From the NCBI GenBank assembly GCA_026195275.1, contig JAPHQU010000004.1, forward strand, positions 3,119 to 67,118: 64,000 bases of DNA. Reading direction: 5' to 3'. A program made the translations under genes and the position numbers. Under the pieces are notes generated by a model. The model had not been told where the DNA came from. It did not search any database and saw nothing but the letters and a program-made list of their open reading frames with translations. This stretch comes from Minisyncoccota bacterium. GTDB lineage: Bacteria > Patescibacteriota > Minisyncoccia > Phycocordibacterales > JABMNX01. Positions 20,406 through 60,704 of this stretch are shown one piece after another. How positions within the stretch are numbered: position 1 is the first letter of the stretch; every line of letters begins with the position of its first letter.

Positions 20406-23400
20406 ATGATTATGAAAAACGACCCTGGAAAGGCTCCCGAGGAGAAGAGTGGTGTTGCAAAGCGTGAGGAGGGGGTCCTCGCATTTTGGCATACAAATAA
20501 TGTCTTCAAGAAATCCGAAGAAAAACCGGCACCAAAAGGAGAATATGTCTTTTACGATGGGCCACCGTTTGCGACCGGGCTTCCGCACTACGGTCACTTG
20601 CTTGCGAGTACTATTAAAGACGCGATACCACGCTACCAGAGTATGCGTGGTCATCGGGTCGTGCGTAAGTGGGGGTGGGACTGCCACGGGCTTCCTCTTG
20701 AGAACGAGATAGAAAAGGAATTGGGTCTTACGACCAAGCGAGACATCGAGAGTCTGGGTATTGCGAAGTTCAATGAAGCGGCGCGCGATGCGGTGCTTCG
20801 CTATGCTGACGATTGGAAGAAGATCATACCGCGGATGGGGCGGTGGGTCGACATGGAGAGCGACTACAAGACCATGGATACCTCGTACACCGAATCGGTG
20901 TGGTGGGTATTCAAAACGCTCTACGACAAAAAAAGTATTTACCAAGGGTTCAAATCAATGCACCTTTGCCCACGTTGTGGCACCACACTCTCGAACTTTG
21001 AAGTGAATCAAGGATATAAAGATACAACCGACATCTCTGTATACGTCGGGCTTAAACTTAAAGATGAGCAGGATACGTCTCTTATTGTGTGGACTACAAC
21101 ACCATGGACGCTACCCGGCAACATGGCAGCGGCAGTGAACAAGGATGTCGAGTACGTCACAGTCGAGAAAAAGGATGAAGGTGGACTCACTCGCTTTATT
21201 GTCGCAAAAGATAAACTCAAAGATGTTTTCGGTGATGATGAATATACCATCGTCGATACATACAAAGGTGAGGAACTTATCGGCAAATCGTATATCCCGC
21301 CGTTTGATTACTACAAAGATAAGAACATCGAGCATAAAGAGAACGCGTGGAAGGTTTACCACGCAGACTATGTTTCAGTTGAGGATGGAACCGGTGTGGT
21401 GCACCTTGCTCCCGCTTTCGGTGAAGAGGACCTAGTGCTTGCTCAACAAGAGGACATCCCGGTCGTACACCACGTAACACCGGAGGGTGTATTTGCACAA
21501 GAAGTGTCTGACTTTGCTGGTATGTTTGCAAAGCCAAAAGATGACCCGCTTGCAACTGATATCGAGATCATTAAGGCGCTCTCCGCGCGCGGCGCGCTCT
21601 TTAAAAAACAGAAGGTAACACACAGCTATCCGTTTTGTTGGCGTTGTGATACGCCGCTTCTTAACTATGCGACATCGTCGTGGTTTGTACGCGTAACTGA
21701 TTTTAAAGACAAGCTTGTTTCAGAGAACAAAAAAGTTGGGTGGATTCCAAAAGATGTCGGCACACATCGATTCGGCAACTGGCTTGAGAATGCACGCGAT
21801 TGGGCGATCTCACGCTCGCGCTATTGGGGCGCACCACTACCGGTATGGCTAAACGAGAAAGAGGAAAAAGTGCGGGTCATGGGATCAGTCGAGGACCTGA
21901 AGAAATATATTGCATCTTCAGGTAATACCTACTTTATGATGCGTCACGGCGAGGCGGTACATAACACTAAGAACACACTGAACGCAAAGGACTCAGTGGA
22001 GAATCCGGTGACGGAAGAAGGAAGGAAACAAGTGTATGAAGCGGCCAAGCTCTTTAACGGAAAGAGCATTGACCTAATCATACACTCTCCATTACAGCGG
22101 ACGCGCGAGACAGCTGAGCTTCTTGCGTCTGAACTCAAGCTCCCTGGATCACAACTTCGCGAAGATGCCCGCCTCACGGAAGTAAATGTCGGGTTGTTTG
22201 AAGGGAAGACAATTGATGAGTACCACGCGTTCTTTGCTGACTCGCGAGAGCGTATGAGTAAGCGACCCGAAGGAGGAGAGAATTGGGGTGAGGTCAAACG
22301 ACGTGTGAGTGAGGTGCTCTACGAGCTCGAGCGAGAATATAAAGATAAAAAGATATTGATCATCTCGCACAACGGACCACTTGAGATGATTCAAGCGGGT
22401 GCGCTCGGGTATGATGTTGATCAATGCGGGGAAGCGATCAAAGATAATCGTTTTGACATGTCGGTCGGCGAGGTGCGTAAACTTCCGTTCATACCGCTTC
22501 CGCATAATACTCTGTTTGAGCTTGACCTACACCGTCCATACATTGATGAGATCACTCTTATTGATACAGACGGCAGCGAGTTGAAACGGATTCCTGATGT
22601 GTTTGACTGCTGGTTTGAATCTGGCTCCATGCCGTACGGGCAGCAGCACTATCCATTTGAGAATACTGATGTCTTCGAGCCAAAGAGCGGATGGTTCAAA
22701 CGAGCGAAAGGCTACCCGGCGGACTTTATCGCGGAAGGAATGGACCAAACGAGAGGCTGGTTCTACTCGCTCATTGTCCTTGGCGTCGGGCTCTTTGGTC
22801 ACTCCCCATACAAGAATGTGATTGTGAACGGTCTCGTGCTTGCGGAAGATGGTCGCAAGATGAGCAAGCGACTCAAGAACTATCCTGATCCGGCATATAT
22901 TTTAAACACCTATGGAGCTGATGCGCTTCGCTACTACCTTCTCTCATCACCGATTGTTCGCGGGGAAGACCTCAATTTCTCTGAAAAGGGTGTTGATGAA
23001 GTGATGAAGAAACTCTTGGTGCGTCTTGAAAACGTATATTCGTTTTATGCACTCTACGTCGAGGATGGAACAGTGCCACAAAGCGTGGCCAGCAAGAATA
23101 TTCTGGACCAGTGGATTCTCTCACGACTCAATGAACTCACTCTTGAGATAACCGGTGCGATGGAACGCTATGAGCTCGACCGCGCGACGCGTCCGATCGG
23201 ACTCTTTATTGATGATCTTTCGACGTGGTATATACGCCGCTCACGTGAGCGCTTTAAGAGCAATGATGTGGAGGATCGTGCGCATGCTCTTGAGACAACG
23301 CGCACTGTTCTCATGGGGCTCAGTAAGGTCATGGCGCCATTCATGCCATTTTATGCGGAAGCACTCTACCAGGAGCTCAAAAAAGAGGACGATCTGGAGA

Positions 23401-23930
23401 GTGTACACCTCTGCGAGTGGCCTGAGGCAGGGAAGAGTAACAAGGAGGCGCTTGAAGATATGGCAGTGGTGCGCCGGCTCGTATCGCTCGGCCTCGAAGC
23501 TCGCGCTAAAGCGGGCACGAAGGTGCGTCAGCCGCTTGCGGAGCTCAAAGTTAGAAGTGAAAAGTTAAAAGGAAAGATGAAACTTCTCGAACTAATCGAG
23601 GACGAAGTGAATGTGAAGAAGATCTCGTTTGATACCTCGCTATCAGAAGAGGTTGAGCTCGACACCGAGCTCACCGATGAGTTGAGACAAGAAGGACTCG
23701 TACGCGATCTTATCAGGCGTATCCAGCAGTTTAGAAAAGAGAACGACCTTACACCGCAAGAGAAGGTGGCAATTATCATCGATACTGATGAGCACCTTAA
23801 GGAAGCGTTTGTGGGCGCGAAGACTGAGATTATGAATGCGACGCTTCTCTCAGACCTCACTTTTGGTTTTGTAGAAGGAGAGAAGGAGACCGTTGACGGG
23901 CATCCGTTTGCGTTCTCACTTAGTAAGTAG
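20406..23930 (+). CDS. ileS: Isoleucyl-tRNA synthetase with an in-frame inserted histidine-phosphatase (PGM-like) domain
   Basis: PPFATGLPHYGHLL (HIGH), TTPWTLPGN (CP1 editing) and KMSKRLKN (KMSKS) are present. An extra ~170 aa lies between the CP region and DLHRPYIDEITL; it contains RHGEAVHN, SPLQRTRETAE and ISHNG motifs. Confidence 0.9.
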   Translation: MIMKNDPGKAPEEKSGVAKREEGVLAFWHTNNVFKKSEEKPAPKGEYVFYDGPPFATGLPHYGHLLASTIKDAIPRYQSMRGHRVVRKWGWDCHGLPLENEIEKELGLTTKRDIESLGIAKFNEAARDAVLRYADDWKKIIPRMGRWVDMESDYKTMDTSYTESVWWVFKTLYDKKSIYQGFKSMHLCPRCGTTLSNFEVNQGYKDTTDISVYVGLKLKDEQDTSLIVWTTTPWTLPGNMAAAVNKDVEYVTVEKKDEGGLTRFIVAKDKLKDVFGDDEYTIVDTYKGEELIGKSYIPPFDYYKDKNIEHKENAWKVYHADYVSVEDGTGVVHLAPAFGEEDLVLAQQEDIPVVHHVTPEGVFAQEVSDFAGMFAKPKDDPLATDIEIIKALSARGALFKKQKVTHSYPFCWRCDTPLLNYATSSWFVRVTDFKDKLVSENKKVGWIPKDVGTHRFGNWLENARDWAISRSRYWGAPLPVWLNEKEEKVRVMGSVEDLKKYIASSGNTYFMMRHGEAVHNTKNTLNAKDSVENPVTEEGRKQVYEAAKLFNGKSIDLIIHSPLQRTRETAELLASELKLPGSQLREDARLTEVNVGLFEGKTIDEYHAFFADSRERMSKRPEGGENWGEVKRRVSEVLYELEREYKDKKILIISHNGPLEMIQAGALGYDVDQCGEAIKDNRFDMSVGEVRKLPFIPLPHNTLFELDLHRPYIDEITLIDTDGSELKRIPDVFDCWFESGSMPYGQQHYPFENTDVFEPKSGWFKRAKGYPADFIAEGMDQTRGWFYSLIVLGVGLFGHSPYKNVIVNGLVLAEDGRKMSKRLKNYPDPAYILNTYGADALRYYLLSSPIVRGEDLNFSEKGVDEVMKKLLVRLENVYSFYALYVEDGTVPQSVASKNILDQWILSRLNELTLEITGAMERYELDRATRPIGLFIDDLSTWYIRRSRERFKSNDVEDRAHALETTRTVLMGLSKVMAPFMPFYAEALYQELKKEDDLESVHLCEWPEAGKSNKEALEDMAVVRRLVSLGLEARAKAGTKVRQPLAELKVRSEKLKGKMKLLELIEDEVNVKKISFDTSLSEEVELDTELTDELRQEGLVRDLIRRIQQFRKENDLTPQEKVAIIIDTDEHLKEAFVGAKTEIMNATLLSDLTFGFVEGEKETVDGHPFAFSLSK
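21920..22480 (+). other. Inserted histidine phosphatase superfamily domain (branch 1, phosphoglycerate-mutase-like) within ileS
   Basis: Catalytic RHG(E) ... SPLxRTxETA ... (I)SHNG motifs in the right order and spacing for a complete PGM-like fold. Confidence 0.75.
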
Positions 23931-53818: not shown

Positions 53819-54955
53819 GCATAGGGTCCATAAAGAGGGAACCGCACCCTGTTTGTAGGACGCGGCACCAGTTTGCTTCGCTTCAGGTGGCTTCTTGTGA
53901 TTCTCTAAGAATTTCTTTCGCTTGCTTTAGTGTTGTGAGTCCTCCTGAAAGAACCCCACCATCTCACAAGACGGAAGTGTCTTTCTTTAGAGAGTGTTAT
54001 GTAGACTGCGCCTCCCTTGAATGCCATGAAGCTGGTGCACGGTATATTCTAAGGGTCCGAATACTCAGGAATAGCACGGTGTCAGCTGGGTTGTTGACTC
54101 AAAAACCCGCCTCGTGTATACTGCTGTCTACGTGATTATGAGTATTGATTTGAAGAACACCAACAAGCGGGGGCGCTAGCCGGGGCATCGACTCATGACT
54201 AACGCAGCCGCGATCTCGCGGTTTTTTTCTTGCCTTCACTCATAACTGACATCACGAGAACTTTGACAACGTCATAGGATCCATCTGGTCGGAGAGACTA
54301 GGCGGATCCGCAGGTAAAAACAAACCAAGACTAAAACTAAATGTTTACGTGCCGCTGTAAGCAAGCGGCACACACGAGTGTGGCTATGGTTATACTCGTG
54401 TAGCGGTTTTTAGATTTCCTGATAGGAGATCTAAGAGCGTGTGGTGGATACCTAGACTGAAAAAGGCGATGAAGGACGTGGCATGTCTGCGATAAGCTTC
54501 GGTAAGGTGACTAGCAACCTTTGACCCGGAGATTTCCGAATGGGGGAACCCGGCCGACTCTGTCGGTCACCTTTCTACTTGATAGAAGGGAGCGCACCCG
54601 GGGAAGTGAAACATCTCAGTACCCGGAGGAGAAGAAACCAATAGGAATTCCCGTAGTAGCGGCGAGCGAACTGGGACGAGCCCAAACTCGATTTCACCTC
54701 TACCATCTGTGTTTACACAGGTGCTAGAGGTGGTATCGGGGGTTGTAAGGCAACAATGTCATTTTTTCGAAAATGAGAAAAGTTACAAATTGTAATGTTA
54801 ATGGAAGCTTCTGGGAAGAAGCACCCAAGAGGGTAACAGTCCCGTACATGAAAACATATACAACTTTTTTGTTGTTGTCCTTGAGTAGCTCAAGACACGA
54901 ATAGCTTGAGTGAATCTGCCAGAACTAACTGGTAAGGCTAAATACTTTTTCAGAT

Positions 54956-54994
<39 letters not shown>

Positions 54995-56235
54995 GTCCGG
55001 TGAGGACAGTGAAATAGACTTGAAACCACATGCTTACAAGGAGTCAGAGCGGTCGCAAGACCGTCATGGCGTGCCTATTGAAGAATGAGCCAACGAGTTC
55101 ATATATGTTGCAGGCTAAGCCCTTATCGGGTGGAGTCACAGGGAAACCGAGTGTGAATAGCGCGAACCATTATGTAGCATGTATGAGACCCGAAGCTCGG
55201 TGAGCTTGCCATGGGCAGGGTGAAGTTTGTGGAAACACAGATGGAGGCCCGAACCGGGAGGTCGTTCAACGCCTTCGGATGACCTGTGGTAAGAAGTGAA
55301 AAGCTAATCGAACCGAGTAATAGCTGGTTCTCTCCGAAATAGCTTTAGGGTTAGCGTCGTGTGTTCCTGTTGGGGGTAGAGCACTGGCAGGTGTGAATAG
55401 GGGGAAACCTCGTCATTCCTATCAAACTCCGAATACCAACAGTTAATAGCGCGGCAGTTAGAGTCAGGGGGCTAAGCTCCTGTGCTCAAAAGGGAAACAG
55501 CCCAGATCCCAAGTTAAGGTCCCAAAATTCACGTTAAGTGCACTTAAGGAGGTGAGATTTCTCAGACAATGAGGAGGTTGGCTTAGAGGCAGCCATCCTT
55601 TAAAGATAGCGTAACAGCTCACTCATTCAGAGATTTCGCGCCGCAAATGATCGGGGCTAAACGTGATACCGAAACTGGGGGCTTTCCATTCATTCGTGAA
55701 TGGGGAGCGGTAGGAGAGCGTTCTGTTCTGCGATGAAGCCGAAGGGATAACCCACGGTGGAGCGTTCAGAAGTGAGAATGTTGGCACGAGTAACCGCATG
55801 GCATGTGAGAATCATGCCCGCCGAAAGATCAAGGTTTCCTTCGCGATGTAGATCAGCGAAGGGTTAGTCGGGCCTAAGCCGATCCCGAAGGGGGGAGGCG
55901 ATGGACACATGGTTAATATTCCATGACTTTACGAATATGCGATGGGATGACGGAGGGTTGTACTCTGAGCGCATTATTGGATTTGCGTTGGTGCTGTGAG
56001 GGGGTCTCTTAGGGAAATCCGGGAGACACCACCCCAAGCAGAGCGAAAATGGTGCGGTTTCGGCCAATCCAAATTCAGAGGAGCACGCTTCCAAGAAAAG
56101 TCTCTAAGCTTCAGTATTCGTAAAACCGTACCCCAAACCAACACAGGTGATCAGGTCGAGAAGACCAAGGCGAACAAGTGAGTCTTCCTCAAGGAACTCG
56201 GCAAAACAGCGACCGTAACTTCGGAATAAGGTCTG

Positions 56236-56335
56236 CCTGTGCAGCCAATAGAGGAGTTCATGAAGAAAACAAAAGATGAGACATGTCATATATGTATGCA
56301 TATACATGACAACGGGTGCAAGTGTTCGATCGAGA
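56236..56335 (+). other. Expansion segment in a 23S variable helix, closed by a perfect 14-bp helix (CAGCCAATAGAGGA/TCCTCTATTGGCTG)
   Basis: About 85 extra nt relative to E. coli between ...CUUCGG.AGAAGG... and ...ACUGUUUA.CAAAAACACAG. Contains internal palindromes. Confidence 0.5.
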
Positions 56336-56517
56336 GATCGAATCCTCTATTGGCTGCGTAGGCCGCAGCTAAAGAGCCCTGGCGACTGTTTACCAAAAAC
56401 ACAGCTCCCTGCGAACTCGTAAGAGGATGTATAGGGGGTGACGCCTGACCAATGCCAGAAGGTTAAGCACGGATGGTGTGATGAGTTTACTTGTCATGCT
56501 GGGCTGTGTAAGCCCTG

Positions 56518-56564
<47 letters not shown>

Positions 56565-57215
56565 AGTCCAGTAATTTTGGACGTGCACGAATGGTGTAAC
56601 GACTGGGGCACTGTCTCGAGGAAGAGCTTGGTGAAAATGCAATGGCGGTGAAGATGCCGCCTACCTGCAGCTAGACGAAAAGACCCCAGGAGCTTTACTA
56701 CAGCTTGATATTGGGGGTGTGAGTTGACTGCGTAGCATAGATGGGAGACTTTGAAGCGGACCTTTCGGGGATCGTGGAGTCGCCAGTGAAATACCATCCT
56801 TTCAATTTGCATTCTCTAACCTGAACGGAAAAAACGTGTAGGGACAGTATCTGGTGGGTAGTTTGAGTGGGGCGCTCTCCTCCTAAAAAGTAACGGAGGA
56901 GTCTATTAAGGTCCTCTAGGCGCGAATGGAAACCGTGCCGATAGTGTAAAGGCAAAAGAGGGCTTGACTGCAAGGGGTACATCCCGAGCAGGCGCGAAAG
57001 CGGAGCTTAGTGAACCGAGAGTTTCCTTTAGACGGAGCTCGAGATTAACGGATAAAAGTTACCCTGGGGATAACAGGCTGGTATTGCCCAAGAGTCCATA
57101 TCGACGGCAATGTTCGGCACCTCGATGTCGGCTCACCTTATCCTGGGGCTGGAGAAGGTCCCAAGGGTTTGACTGTTCGTCAATTAAAAAGGTACGCGAG
57201 CTGGGTTCAGACCGT

Positions 57216-57526
57216 TGAGAAGTTGAATTTATTTGACTTCTCAACAGTCTGAGTCCACTCTAACGACACAAAATCGAAGTCTTTTCGTTTATTCAATGAG
57301 AATTAATCAATCTAATCACGGCGGCTGGGTGTTTTCGTAACACCTAGTAAAGCTGACTTATATCGGTAAAACCCGAACCCATTCAGGGAGGGCAATACCG
57401 AGGAAACCCCGCACTTGCATGCAAGTGAAGGGGGTCCGTAGAGACTGAACGTCAGTTATCTGCACACTGTAATGGTGTGTCAGTTAAAGCTACAGTCCAA
57501 TGCACGAAGTAATTCGTGAGAACATG
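57216..57526 (+). other. Probable ORF-less group I intron in 23S rRNA domain V (near E. coli positions ~2593-2597)
   Basis: Conserved 23S sequence GGGUUCAGACCGU | ... | CGUGAGACAGGUUGGUC is interrupted by ~311 nt. The insert follows a U, ends in G, starts with a 10-bp P1-like hairpin (GTTGAGAAGT/ACTTCTCAAC), has AGACUG...CAGUCC (P7-like) and a terminal hairpin CACGAAgtaaTTCGTG (P9-like). Confidence 0.55.
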
Positions 57527-57667
57527 CGTGAGACAGGTTGGTCTTAATCTGCTGTGGGCGTCGATCTTTGAGAGGAGTTGTTCCTAGTACGAGAGGACCG
57601 GAATGAACTGACCTCTGGTGTATCGGCTGTCGCGCCAGCGGCACTGCCGAGTAGCTATGTCGGGAAT

Positions 57668-57700
<33 letters not shown>

Positions 57701-57882
57701 AACCTCAAGATAAGAGATCATAGACCCCTAGGAGATGACTAGGTGATAGGCTCTCGGTGTACGCACAGTAATGTGTTTAGCCAAGGAGTACTAATTCGTC
57801 GTACTCCTGTTAGGAAATCTGAAAATCGCTGTAAACAAAAAGTTTGTTTTTACCAACTCAAGTATTCAATGATGGGTGTTTG

Positions 57883-58053
57883 GGGCCGTAGCTCAGAAAG
57901 GTCACACGCTGTTTCTCAGTTCTTTTGGATTGATTTACTCCATGAGCTGCCAACTTAAGGGGTGGGTCAGGAACACGCGTGTGTCGCGAGAGAGCATCTC
58001 GTCTTGGGAAGGTCGCAGGTTCAAATCCTGCCGGCTCCACCAACTTTCTATCA
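57883..58053 (+). tRNA. Disrupted or intron-containing tRNA-like gene: canonical 5' end and 3' T-arm/acceptor end separated by ~100 nt
   Basis: 5' end GGGGCCGUAGCUCAG. 3' end GCAGG-UUCAAAU-CCUGC-CGGCUCC-A-CCA, complementary to the 5' acceptor. No contiguous D/anticodon arms could be folded. Confidence 0.4.
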
Positions 58054-58073
58054 TGAATAGTAACGGGGTGTAG

Positions 58074-58141
58074 CTCAGCCTGGTGGAGCGCTGGCTTCGG
58101 TAGCCAGAGGTCGAGGGTTCGAATCCCTTCCACCCCGACCA
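58074..58141 (+). tRNA. tRNA-Pro (anticodon CGG) with encoded CCA
   Basis: CGGGGTG acceptor, GCTCAGCCTGGTGGAGC D-arm, anticodon stem CTGGC/GCCAG with loop TTCGGTA, T-arm GAGGGTTCGAATCCCTT, CACCCCG-A-CCA. One extra C at the T-stem/acceptor junction. Confidence 0.7.
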
Positions 58142-58236
58142 TTCGTGGTCACCATCATTGTTTTTTCTTTGTCCGACATGGAGTCGGACTTATCATTGAG
58201 TACTTGAGTGTGACGTGTTAGATATTCGCACCTTTT

Positions 58237-58347
58237 GTTCTGGTGATTAATCGCTGAGGAACCACCTGTTCTCATTCCGAACACAGAAGTTAAGCTCAGT
58301 AGAGGCGATGATACTCTTTGATGGGGAAAGTAGCTAGTCGCCAGAAC
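58237..58347 (+). rRNA. rrf: 5S ribosomal RNA
   Basis: CCGAACACAGAAGUUAAGCUC (loop C/helix III) and GGGGAAAGUAGCUAGUCGCCAG. Helix I is extended by a 20-bp precursor stem (58224..58243 pairs with 58341..58360). Confidence 0.85.
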
Positions 58348-58776
58348 AAAAGGTGCGAATTTTTGTTTGTTGACCCAGAGTGTTCTTTTTGAGATACTAC
58401 CGCTTGGTATATGTGGCGCGGAAGAGTGAGTCCTCGGTACCAACTTGAGGTAAGACCTCGTGGTCAAATCCACTAGTCACAACAGTTCGTAGGCAAAGCG
58501 GCTGTTGTGGATCTGTGGCATTTGAAGATGAGATAAGAAGTAATAAGAACAACTTCTGTCTTGATCTCTTGTGTCGACCGAGTGTTCGGTATATTCGCGA
58601 TATATCGCATCACTCCTGGTCTATAGTGACACGTTTCTCACAATTCTCGTGTCTTACTTATAGGGTCGTAAGTAGTACGCTGCCACGTCGGACGGACCGA
58701 GTGTTGCACTTGGTCCGTCCGATCTTTTCAACCGTCTATAGGGCGGTTTTTCCTTTTTTTGTTACAATAGAGATAT

Positions 58777-59543: not shown

Positions 59544-60704
59544 ATGAACGGTTGGTTATCACAAAAAGAGAGAGTGGTCCGGAGCGCACGAACACTGTTT
59601 TCTCATATTGATTGGGTGCTTCTTGTGTCTTCTTTACTCCTTGTGGGGGCGGGGGTGCTCACCATGAACTCGTTTGTTGGTGAGAATTATTTCTTTGAGA
59701 ACCAATTGATCTGGGCGGCGGTCGGGGTCGCTCTCTTTTTTGTTTTGAGTTTTATTGATTTCCGATTTCTTCGTCGAACGAGTACTATTGTGGCACTTTT
59801 TCTCGCTTCGACGTTCCTCCTCCTCCTGATATTTGTTTTTGGAGACATTGCAAAAGGAGCGCAAAGTCGTTTTGACTTTGGCGTGTTCGCGCTCCAACCG
59901 TCTGACCCGATCAAATTGGTGGTGATCCTCTTGCTTGCGAAATACTTCTCGCGCCGACACATCGAGATTGCAAACATTCGACATATTCTCGTCTCAGGCT
60001 TTTATGCTTTCGTTATATTCTTGCTAGTTCTCTTGCAGCCGGATTTTGGCTCAGCGGTCATTATTGCGATGCTCTGGTTTGGCTTCGTGCTCGTCTCGGG
60101 CATATCAAAGAGACACCTCTTGCTCGTATTGCTTCTTGGCGCCGTTGGACTCTTTGGTATGTGGTCGTATGTCTTTGAGGACTATCAGAAGCAGCGCATT
60201 CTCACTTTCTTGCATCCACTAGCTGATATCCAAGGTACGGGGTATAACGCGTACCAGTCAACTATCGCTGTTGGTTCCGGGCAGATTCTAGGGAAAGGTG
60301 TGGGATACGGAACACAGTCGAAGTTGCAGTTTTTACCCGAGTACGAGACCGACTTTATATTTGCCGCATTTGCAGAAGAATGGGGTTTTGTTGGGGTGAT
60401 CATGCTCTTTGGCATATTCTTTATCGTCATCTGGCGTATTCTTGAGAACGCAATGGTGGGCGCGAGTAATTTTGAGATTCTCTTTGGTATTGGATTGGCA
60501 ATCTTATTTATCAGTCATTTATTAGTGAACGTTGGTATGAACATCGGGCTTCTGCCGGTCACCGGAACAACACTGCCGTTCATGAGCTATGGGGGTTCTC
60601 ATTTGGTAACTGAATATATCGGTCTCGGAATATTGATGGGGATGCGTCGTTATGCACGGGCGACACACAAAGAAGACACACACCGCGAATTCATCGGTAT
60701 GTAG
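59544..60704 (+). CDS. SEDS-family peptidoglycan glycosyltransferase (FtsW/RodA)
   Basis: 386 aa, ~10 TM helices; conserved LQPDFGSAVI and a C-terminal GGSHL-like region typical of FtsW/RodA. Confidence 0.85.
   Translation: MNGWLSQKERVVRSARTLFSHIDWVLLVSSLLLVGAGVLTMNSFVGENYFFENQLIWAAVGVALFFVLSFIDFRFLRRTSTIVALFLASTFLLLLIFVFGDIAKGAQSRFDFGVFALQPSDPIKLVVILLLAKYFSRRHIEIANIRHILVSGFYAFVIFLLVLLQPDFGSAVIIAMLWFGFVLVSGISKRHLLLVLLLGAVGLFGMWSYVFEDYQKQRILTFLHPLADIQGTGYNAYQSTIAVGSGQILGKGVGYGTQSKLQFLPEYETDFIFAAFAEEWGFVGVIMLFGIFFIVIWRILENAMVGASNFEILFGIGLAILFISHLLVNVGMNIGLLPVTGTTLPFMSYGGSHLVTEYIGLGILMGMRRYARATHKEDTHREFIGM

Follow-up and report, generated by a model that had tools for sequence, protein, structure and literature searches.

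tRNA-like processing signals, degenerate tRNAs in rRNA operons and alanine mimics of the transfer-messenger RNA (tmRNA, SsrA) type are already known. Alanyl-tRNA synthetase (AlaRS) reads the G3:U70 pair of its substrate and not the anticodon; replacement of the anticodon is tolerable for alanine because the enzyme ignores it, and the origin of tmRNA is presumed to rest on this indifference. In Haloferax volcanii, a tRNA-like element that directly precedes 5S rRNA is reportedly a site of action of tRNase Z. The same enzyme also matures the 5′ end of 5S rRNA, according to the account of the work (Holzle 2008, PMC2327364) that is cited in PMC7714728. The known tRNA introns of Patescibacteria are group I ribozymes that interrupt the anticodon loop (at positions such as 33/34 and 35/36), self-splice and restore a normal tRNA (PMC13011429). 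The locus compared with these systems here lies in a 64,000-nucleotide stretch of contig JAPHQU010000004.1 from a Minisyncoccota bacterium (the window), where a 161-nt element with the ends of a tRNA-Ala is located between the 23S and 5S rRNA genes. Its structure and ancestry make it very probably a non-decoding derivative of a spacer tRNA-Ala(UGC) gene. We lean, with considerable reserve, towards a dispensable tRNA-Ala-derived module that would be cut from the rRNA precursor by tRNA-processing enzymes.

A tRNA-Ala-like element in the 23S-5S spacer

The Ala-like element was read from the sequence as positions 57882–58042 of the plus strand (161 nt), 68 nt past the 3′ end of 23S and 196 nt ahead of 5S on the same strand. 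It runs GGGGCCG-UA-GCUC-AG, about 120 nt, and then AGGUC-GCAGG-UUCAAAU-CCUGC-CGGCUCC-A-CCA. The ends pair as a 7-bp acceptor stem that includes G3:U70, the discriminator is A73, the CCA is encoded, and the T arm has the tRNA form of 5 bp with a 7-nt T loop. All members of the alanine identity set (G3:U70, A73, G2:C71 and G4:C69) are present. The Rfam tRNA model (RF00005) covers 57882–58039 over its full length with 36.9 bits, the gathering score being 29 (E = 4e-4 over the whole window with all families). Because covariance models score the element as a tRNA at this level, it may be miscounted as a tRNA-Ala or an "intron tRNA" in genomes of the Candidate Phyla Radiation (CPR). In its default mode ARAGORN called neither a tRNA nor a tmRNA at the element.

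The original prediction had described tRNA-type 5′ and 3′ ends with complementary acceptor strands, a stretch of non-tRNA sequence between them and an intact tRNA-Pro(CGG) directly downstream. Each of these parts is seen in the sequence, and ARAGORN places the tRNA-Pro(CGG) gene immediately after the element. The prediction had the right element, with its 5′ start set 1 nt late and its 3′ end 11 nt too long. The observation is beyond chance, as the Rfam score is above threshold and nine other versions occupy the same place in related genomes.

The fold was computed with the acceptor stem and the T arm fixed. A cloverleaf with a long-range D stem (57891–94/57992–95) has an energy of −63.6 kcal/mol compared to −63.9 kcal/mol for the unconstrained minimum free energy (MFE) structure. 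The D stem GCUC/GAGC closes a 97-nt loop (57895–57991) that contains a 91-nt insert, where a tRNA has a D-loop of 7–11 nt. In place of the canonical anticodon arm of 5 bp and a 7-nt loop with U33 and an anticodon there is a 13-nt stub (57997–58009). The original prediction had found no contiguous D or anticodon arm between the ends; this holds to the extent that the D stem forms only across the insert and the anticodon arm is only a stub, but a cloverleaf is nevertheless possible. The insert alone folds as a Y-shaped domain (−34.8 kcal/mol, z = −3.58 versus shuffles) consisting of the helices 57903–57916/57969–57983, a hairpin at 57918–57931 and a hairpin at 57932–57968 with the 7-nt apical loop CUGCCAA. 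It had no match to any Rfam family in the window spacer at E ≤ 1, and by BLAST it is single-copy in the window and among all loci.

The Ala-like element is part of a cassette. A long bracketing helix encloses the Ala-like gene, the tRNA-Pro gene and a small hairpin. The strands of this helix contain an inverted repeat, 57856–57873/58192–58209, that is 94% complementary.

Canonical tRNA-Ala(UGC) shares with the element the acceptor GGGGCCG/CGGCUCC with G3:U70 and G4:C69, A73, CCA, the U8A9-GCUC-AG segment, the AGGUC variable loop and a UUCRANU T loop, and in one related locus (L113) the canonical gene also lies between 23S and 5S. The element differs in having no 5-bp/7-nt anticodon arm, a 91-nt D-loop insert and no ARAGORN call. 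The tRNA-like domain of tmRNA is alike in its G3:U70 acceptor, T arm, CCA, missing anticodon and large non-tRNA domain between the halves. Compared to tmRNA, the element is short (161 nt versus ~350), has a true D stem, carries its extra domain on the D-loop and not on a P2 helix in place of the anticodon stem, has no pseudoknots, tag open reading frame (ORF), resume codon or stop, and is inside an rRNA operon. The Rfam tmRNA model (RF00023) aligned its ends alone, with a score of 30.2 bits that is below the gathering score of 47. YrlA (bacterial Y RNA) also has a tRNA-mimicking domain on a long helix, and Rfam similarity in the T arm amounts to 24.6 and 21.8 bits, far under the gathering score of 69. 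The YrlA RNA ends at the long stem and its "acceptor" is capped, whereas the ends of the element form a normal acceptor stem with CCA. Rfam searches of the window spacer and of the spacer in L115 at E ≤ 1 returned only tRNA, tmRNA ends, YrlA and Plastid-ycf2 noise, with no ribozyme or intron family.

Ancestry and selection in related spacers

The 23S-5S spacers of relatives were gathered through RodA, because the gene order around 23S-5S is conserved, and by one metagenome pattern scan. The RodA gene of the window is at 59544–60704, and the relatives of its protein are Kaiserbacteria, Paceibacterota and Parcubacteria (CPR/Patescibacteria). The order L10-L12-x-MscS-(23S-5S)-ORF253-RodA is kept in L002, L003 and L006, based on called genes and Pfam labels. 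The sample consists of 10 distinct versions at the same spacer position, the window and nine others, from metagenome assemblies.

The versions form a series. L113 contains a canonical 75-nt (CCA included) tRNA-Ala(UGC) whose acceptor GGGGCCG/CGGCUCC-A-CCA is identical to that of the window. The gene in L053 is 75 nt counting 3 nt after A73, is without CCA and has a 5-nt anticodon loop (UUGCU-CAAAA-GGCAA). In L003/L012, L010, L011, L111/L112, L115 and L095 the D arm is normal and tRNA-Ala-like (AGYUGGGA-GAGC), and a 50–100-nt extended helix replaces the anticodon loop. The window and L107 combine a D-loop insert with a stub anticodon arm. The cassette is absent from L002, L116 and L006–L009, which represent three lineages. 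In L116 the 5′ strand of the bracketing helix persists, which points to loss of the cassette at that locus. The relatives match the tRNA-Ala consensus in their D arm and variable loop. The comparative series, with the canonical gene in L113, identifies the ancestor as a spacer tRNA-Ala(UGC) gene. Decoding capacity was lost by several different routes, and the gene is dispensable. Orthologous spacers with the 3′ half alone, named in the original prediction as the sign of a pseudo-tRNA remnant, were not encountered; the relatives have both halves.

L107 is the closest structural relative of the window element. It has the acceptor, GCUU-AGUGG, a large insert, GAGC-GA, a CCCG-UUCG-CGGG stub and A-AGGUC; compared with the window stub, this stub shows compensatory changes in two pairs. 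The GAGC-R-stem unit comes after the insert in L107 and before the anticodon-arm insert in L115. The layout of L107 and its two compensatory stub pairs favor the cloverleaf over a competing local hairpin, CGAGA-GAGCA-UCUCG, found in the unconstrained MFE structure. This hairpin was dropped because L107 has no equivalent and keeps the GAGC-R-stub with compensatory pairs. The idea that the insert is a repeated mobile element was also rejected. BLAST of the window, L107 and L115 inserts against the window and all loci gave self-matches only, the sole non-self match among the tested inserts being a 21-nt conserved tip common to L115 and L011. The D-loop inserts of the window and L107 have only a CUCC/GGGG stem in common with the anticodon-arm inserts of the relatives.

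Helix alignments were cut by hand, with fixed tRNA geometry counted from the 3′ end, and pairing played no part in the cuts. Over the 10 versions, pairing in the acceptor and T stems amounts to 97.5%, with both-side changes in 8 of 12 pairs, a result reached by 0 of 500 shuffles. Compensatory changes affect five of the seven acceptor pairs and three of the five T-stem pairs. The acceptor 5′ strand takes seven distinct forms (GGGGCCG, GGGGCUG, AGGGCCG, GGGGGAA, GGGGGAG, GGGGCAG and GUGGGGG). Two mismatches interrupt the acceptor stem of L111/L112, which end in CCG. Six of the 10 versions encode CCA; it is missing from L053 and L095. The covariation indicates that selection acts on the tRNA top half.

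The literature on tRNA-like elements in the 23S-5S spacer yielded nothing bacterial, and the spacer elements are undescribed there; a paper on CPR rRNAs (PMC9297842) makes no mention of spacer tRNA-likes. Two pattern scans of viral contigs gave no match. The novelty lies in a lineage-wide bacterial cassette whose tRNA-Ala derivative retains the identity set while large structured inserts grow at two different sites. The orthologues constitute a natural series of the fate of a tRNA once decoding is unneeded. Such a tRNA retains its top half and alanine identity pair; its D and anticodon loops become smaller or acquire large structured domains.

Aberrant tRNA-like genes were also seen in the 23S-5S spacers of more distant Paceibacteria (L017 500–603, L036 1023–1120, which equals L050 8857–8954, L033 1557–1728 and L014 1263–1336). 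The L017 type has a 30-nt hairpin in the D-loop ahead of G18G19. Other examples are 98-nt and 172-nt genes with anticodon-region inserts and loops in which G33 replaces U33.

A proposed tRNA-shaped processing module and the alternatives

The case for a processing module draws on the whole cassette. The 20-bp bracketing helix is 97.9% paired over 7 lineages with 7 compensatory pairs, and 0 of 500 shuffles match this result. Long helices of a similar kind surround tRNA-containing spacers in many more distant Paceibacteria, as detected by RNAduplex. The second module, the tRNA-Pro(CGG), has U37 in the window, where G37 is almost universal in tRNA-Pro, and an 8-nt T loop; the Pro module of L111 is a canonical tRNA-Pro(CGG). 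In the Pro-like modules of L113, L115, L055 and L112 the anticodon loop is short or not of the Pro type (loops such as AAUUUAA, AUUAUAU or UUUUAA), and the loop of the L053 module is degenerate too. Prolyl-tRNA synthetase (ProRS) recognition follows a G35/G36 rule, and by this rule the degenerate modules are not ProRS substrates. The Pro-like module degenerates in the same way as its neighbor although it is unchargeable, which points to a role common to both modules and independent of charging. Nearly all rRNA-operon-embedded tRNA or tRNA-like genes in the clade have an encoded CCA, whereas it is missing from 4 of 5 stand-alone window tRNAs and from the tRNA-Ile genes after 16S. Bacterial RNase P RNA contacts RCCA, and the encoded CCA in the embedded genes fits this contact.

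The operon layout is consistent with one transcription unit. The best promoter-like site, TTGACT-17-TATACT at 54094–54122, is upstream of 23S, a terminator-like hairpin follows 5S at 58730–58748, and a search for promoter-like sites found no strong promoter directly upstream of the Ala-like element. The 16S gene does not precede 23S; in the relatives it is located 8–9 kb downstream. The relatives also have tRNA genes in a 360–440-nt intervening sequence within 23S, at a site equal to 55684/55706 of the window, where the window has only ~21 nt. These tRNAs encode CCA where this was checked (L002 and L003). The arrangement suggests that 23S in the relatives is fragmented or processed at tRNA punctuation marks, and tRNA shapes are a recurrent punctuation device in the rRNA operons of the clade. 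The behavior of both modules, the bracketing helix, the CCA and the tRNAs inside the rRNA operon point one way, to a processing module.

In the favored scheme, the cassette would be co-transcribed with 23S and 5S rRNA, and the bracketing helix and the two tRNA shapes would be cis processing modules. An RNase III-type double-strand nuclease would cleave the bracketing helix, RNase P would cleave at 57882 with the assistance of the encoded RCCA, and 3′-end enzymes would trim to the CCA, separating the 23S and 5S precursors. If the selected property is recognition by tRNA end-processing enzymes, only the top half is constrained, and the loops are free to shrink or expand. The element has what defines a t-element, a non-decoding tRNA-shaped fold in a precursor that adjoins a mature RNA end, with the cleavage itself a prediction. 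It shares with the Haloferax element and the plant mitochondrial t-elements a non-decoding tRNA shape beside an rRNA end, and presumably recognition by the enzymes. The element differs from them in being bacterial (CPR) and derived from tRNA-Ala, in keeping the identity set and CCA, and in its large insert, tRNA-Pro partner, bracketing helix and dispensability. A decayed tRNA used as an rRNA processing signal was one of three candidates in the original prediction and fits best, given spacers that range from a canonical gene through anticodon-less forms to absence. The word "decayed" is too strong, since compensatory changes have preserved the acceptor and T stems and G3:U70 never varies. Reduced genomes are known to have few ribosome-biogenesis factors, and the cassette and the tRNAs inside 23S suggest that tRNA-processing enzymes may cut rRNA precursors in them.

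Several observations weigh against a processing role. Close relatives (L002, L116 and L006–L009) are without the cassette, so rRNA maturation does not require it; because the cassette is dispensable, its "function" may equal its own clean removal, and the bracketing helix might suffice to separate 23S from 5S. Neither G3:U70 nor G4:C69 varies in any of the 10 versions over the seven acceptor stems, and this invariance counts against the role since an AlaRS identity set is not needed for processing only. G20 is retained in the relatives with a normal D arm. The tip of the anticodon-arm insert, in the four relatives retaining it, is a hairpin YCUCY-(6 bp)-GWUAU-(6 bp)-AY-GGGGR that is 95.5% paired with compensatory changes in 5 of 11 pairs. 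The anticodon-arm insert of the relatives is not junk, and its conserved covarying tip hints at a specific partner. Finally, just two versions (the window and L107) have a D-loop insert, and their inserts are mutually unalignable.

A trans-acting RNA would account for the invariant identity pairs. The excised 161-nt RNA would be charged with alanine by AlaRS via G3:U70 and act outside normal decoding, possibly in a minimal tmRNA-like rescue or Ala-tailing, as a source of alanine in cell-wall or lipid aminoacylation, or as the ligand of a hairpin-binding protein. We regard this as unlikely. In its favor, G3:U70 and G4:C69 do not vary, and A73 mostly does not, while five of the seven acceptor pairs change by compensation. 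The CCA encoded in six versions fits it as well, the retained D-loop GG and T loop make an L-shape plausible, the inserts of the relatives share a conserved covarying apical hairpin, and the Rfam tmRNA alignment at 30.2 bits falls on the acceptor and the T arm. Metagenomes also contain tRNA-likes with G3:U70 and a long extension of the anticodon arm outside rRNA operons (L098, L100, L102 and L106). With about one change per acceptor pair, however, zero changes at 3:70 is suggestive and statistically not decisive. Close relatives do without the cassette, L111/L112 have a mismatched acceptor and a CCG end, L053 and L095 have no CCA, and the neighboring Pro-like module degenerates likewise despite being unchargeable. 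The element has no tag frame and no pseudoknots, its tmRNA score is under the gathering score, and ARAGORN finds no tmRNA. A Pfam scan of 36 window ORFs detected no nearby partner gene of the SmpB, Fem-type transferase, AlaRS or Ro-like kind. The broader proposal, a family of alanine-chargeable, anticodon-less tRNA-Ala derivatives made at rRNA levels in CPR bacteria and acting in trans, is more doubtful still. The members might be a tag-less minimal counterpart of tmRNA, donors of alanine outside translation or RNA partners of a protein that binds the conserved hairpin tip; if the proposal is true, they would represent present-day intermediates on the way from tRNA-Ala to a tmRNA-like molecule. 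The pairing data bear in turn on a plain tRNA pseudogene, a redundant spacer tRNA-Ala copy in neutral decay whose top half is similar through recent divergence. The loss of the anticodon in a different way in each lineage (short loops, inserts at different sites, loss of the whole cassette), the unalignable inserts of the window and L107 and the acceptor mismatches in L111 would all be expected of such a copy. Neutral decay would break pairs, but eight pairs carry double compensatory substitutions and 97.5% pairing is maintained. The G:U pair never turns to G:C or A:U, which is unexpected under neutrality, and the T-loop and D-loop signatures are retained. A pseudogene is accordingly an improbable account of the element.

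The remaining proposals would make the element a source of decoding or tmRNA-like RNA. Splicing of the ~90-nt insert by a group I-like, archaeal bulge-helix-bulge-type or new mechanism could in principle yield a decoding tRNA, and the original prediction had listed an intron-containing tRNA with a non-canonical intron position among its candidates. The D-loop site is non-canonical, the Rfam tRNA model covers the element end to end, and ARAGORN with the -i option gives an "intron" model. The latter model of the window (His, with a 3-bp D stem and a 25-nt variable arm) conflicts with G3:U70, and the intron-mode calls for the window and orthologues, His(GUG), Arg(GCG), Gln(CUG) and Arg(GCG), were rejected as spurious because the stems are poor, the calls are inconsistent and G3:U70 is present throughout. 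The Intron_gpI model (RF00028) had no match in the element at the gathering score or at E ≤ 1, although the model does detect introns in the 23S genes of L010 and L036. At 91 nt the insert is far shorter than group I introns, which usually have 200 nt or more. Removal of the insert leaves a 4-bp stub with a 5-nt loop and no anticodon, and L053 has a stub without any insert. The group I intron tRNAs of Patescibacteria (PMC13011429) belong to the same phylum, are interrupted by extra RNA and are missed by standard annotation tools; the element differs from them in its 91-nt D-loop insert, the missing group I match and the failure to restore an anticodon. Archaeal intron, split and permuted tRNAs provide precedents for non-canonical insert sites, including the D-loop, and for gene halves that lie apart. 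The element is bacterial, its halves are collinear, and removal of its insert gives no decoding tRNA. In the fold, the surroundings of 57897/57987 show no evident 3-4-3 bulge-helix-bulge, as judged by eye with no dedicated scorer for this motif. An intron-containing tRNA is very improbable. We give even less credence to a split or circularly permuted tRNA, which the original prediction had also offered, or to a two-piece or minimal tmRNA gene. The tRNA halves are ~120 nt apart and there is a weak match to a tmRNA model, but the halves are in normal 5′-to-3′ order on one strand and in one transcription unit. The permuted tmRNA match scores 22.5 bits against 47 and overlaps the tRNA-Pro, and there is no resume-codon tag ORF and no pseudoknot.

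Features of the operon and further observations

The features of the cassette and of the rRNA genes are collected in Table 1, together with the intervening sequences and introns of the relatives.

Table 1. Positions of the cassette, its parts and rRNA operon features (window positions unless a related locus is named)
Feature	Positions	Strand	Remarks
23S rRNA gene	54421–57813	+	Rfam LSU_rRNA_bacteria, 2403 bits, full model
Bracketing helix, 5′ strand	57856–57877	+	Pairs with 58188–58209 (RNAduplex, inverted repeat)
Acceptor stem 5′ strand, GGGGCCG	57882–57888	+	G3 at 57884; pairs with 58032–58038
U8 A9, D-stem 5′ strand GCUC (57891–57894), D-loop start AG	57889–57896	+	Equals tRNA-Ala consensus UAGCUCAG in all relatives
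D-loop insert, 91 nt	57897–57987	+	From the fold; starts AAAGGU, possible G18 G19 at 57900–57901
D-loop end GAGA, D-stem 3′ strand GAGC (57992–57995), A26	57988–57996	+	Long-range D stem in the fold
Stub anticodon arm, UCUC-GUCUU-GGGA	57997–58009	+	From the fold; 4 bp, 5-nt loop
Variable loop AGGUC, T arm GCAGG-UUCAAAU-CCUGC (58015–58031)	58010–58031	+	Sequence reading
Acceptor stem 3′ strand CGGCUCC, A73, CCA	58032–58042	+	U70 at 58036, A73 at 58039, CCA at 58040–58042
tRNA-Pro(CGG), second cassette member	58064–58141	+	ARAGORN; Rfam tRNA 49 bits
Bracketing helix, 3′ strand	58188–58209	+	Hairpin 58171–58189 just before
5S rRNA gene	58239–58346	+	Rfam 5S_rRNA, 77.4 bits
23S intervening sequence, L002	6264–6628		tRNA "Phe(aaa)" and tRNA-Thr(CGU)
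23S intervening sequence, L003	4274–4711		tRNA-Trp
23S intervening sequence, L006–L008	5590–5999		tRNA-Trp
23S introns/LAGLIDADG ORFs, L010	290–497, 1293–1477
23S introns/LAGLIDADG ORFs, L036	392–594
23S introns/LAGLIDADG ORFs, L006/L007	6996–7469
23S introns/LAGLIDADG ORFs, L113	510–980

Group I introns whose scores exceed the Rfam gathering score, as well as LAGLIDADG ORFs, occur in the 23S genes of the relatives. The window 23S gene is 3393 nt long versus a 2925-position model and gave no intron match. The 5S gene region (58226–58365) has its own extended helix, CGCACCUUUUGUUCUGG/CCAGAACAAAAGGUGCG, that brackets 5S and suggests a separate pre-5S processing stem. In the relatives, a 5S-like 5′ segment, hairpin repeats and a 5S-like "CAUUCCGACCUGCCCCGUAG" segment are located just upstream of the true 5S (L107 390–640, L020 8100–8245, L095 2915–3050 and L006 8840–8920). 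They represent a pseudo-copy of 5S or, alternatively, a 5S gene that contains a large insertion.

Two groups of G3:U70 genes were seen beyond the spacers. The first consists of tRNA-Ala-like genes in metagenome contigs (L098 568–730 and, on the minus strand, L100 1862–1973, L102 3052–3164 and L106 8744–8878) in which the anticodon stem runs on into a long hairpin of up to ~100 nt. These contigs have 35–39% GC and no rRNA gene, and the L098 gene comes directly after a tRNA-Pro(CGG). The second group comprises 123–128-nt tRNAs in L090 (4234–4361), L091 (3394–3519), L092 (3037–3159), L093 (5193–5315) and L103 (574–696), with the same type on the minus strand of L096 (309–431 of the reverse complement). 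They share a ~50-nt conserved anticodon-loop insert, CCCUC..GYCCG...CGGGCCG.AGG..GAGGGUUAYC, on contigs of 64–74% GC. The tRNAs of L092, L096 and L103 are within tRNA gene clusters or arrays, and a tRNA-Pro(CGG) is just upstream in L092 and L093. The second group may represent an undescribed small tRNA intron or tRNA-like family.

Elsewhere in the window, 20406–23930 encodes an isoleucyl-tRNA-synthetase-type protein of 1174 amino acids with a His_Phos_1 domain inserted at residues 510–674.

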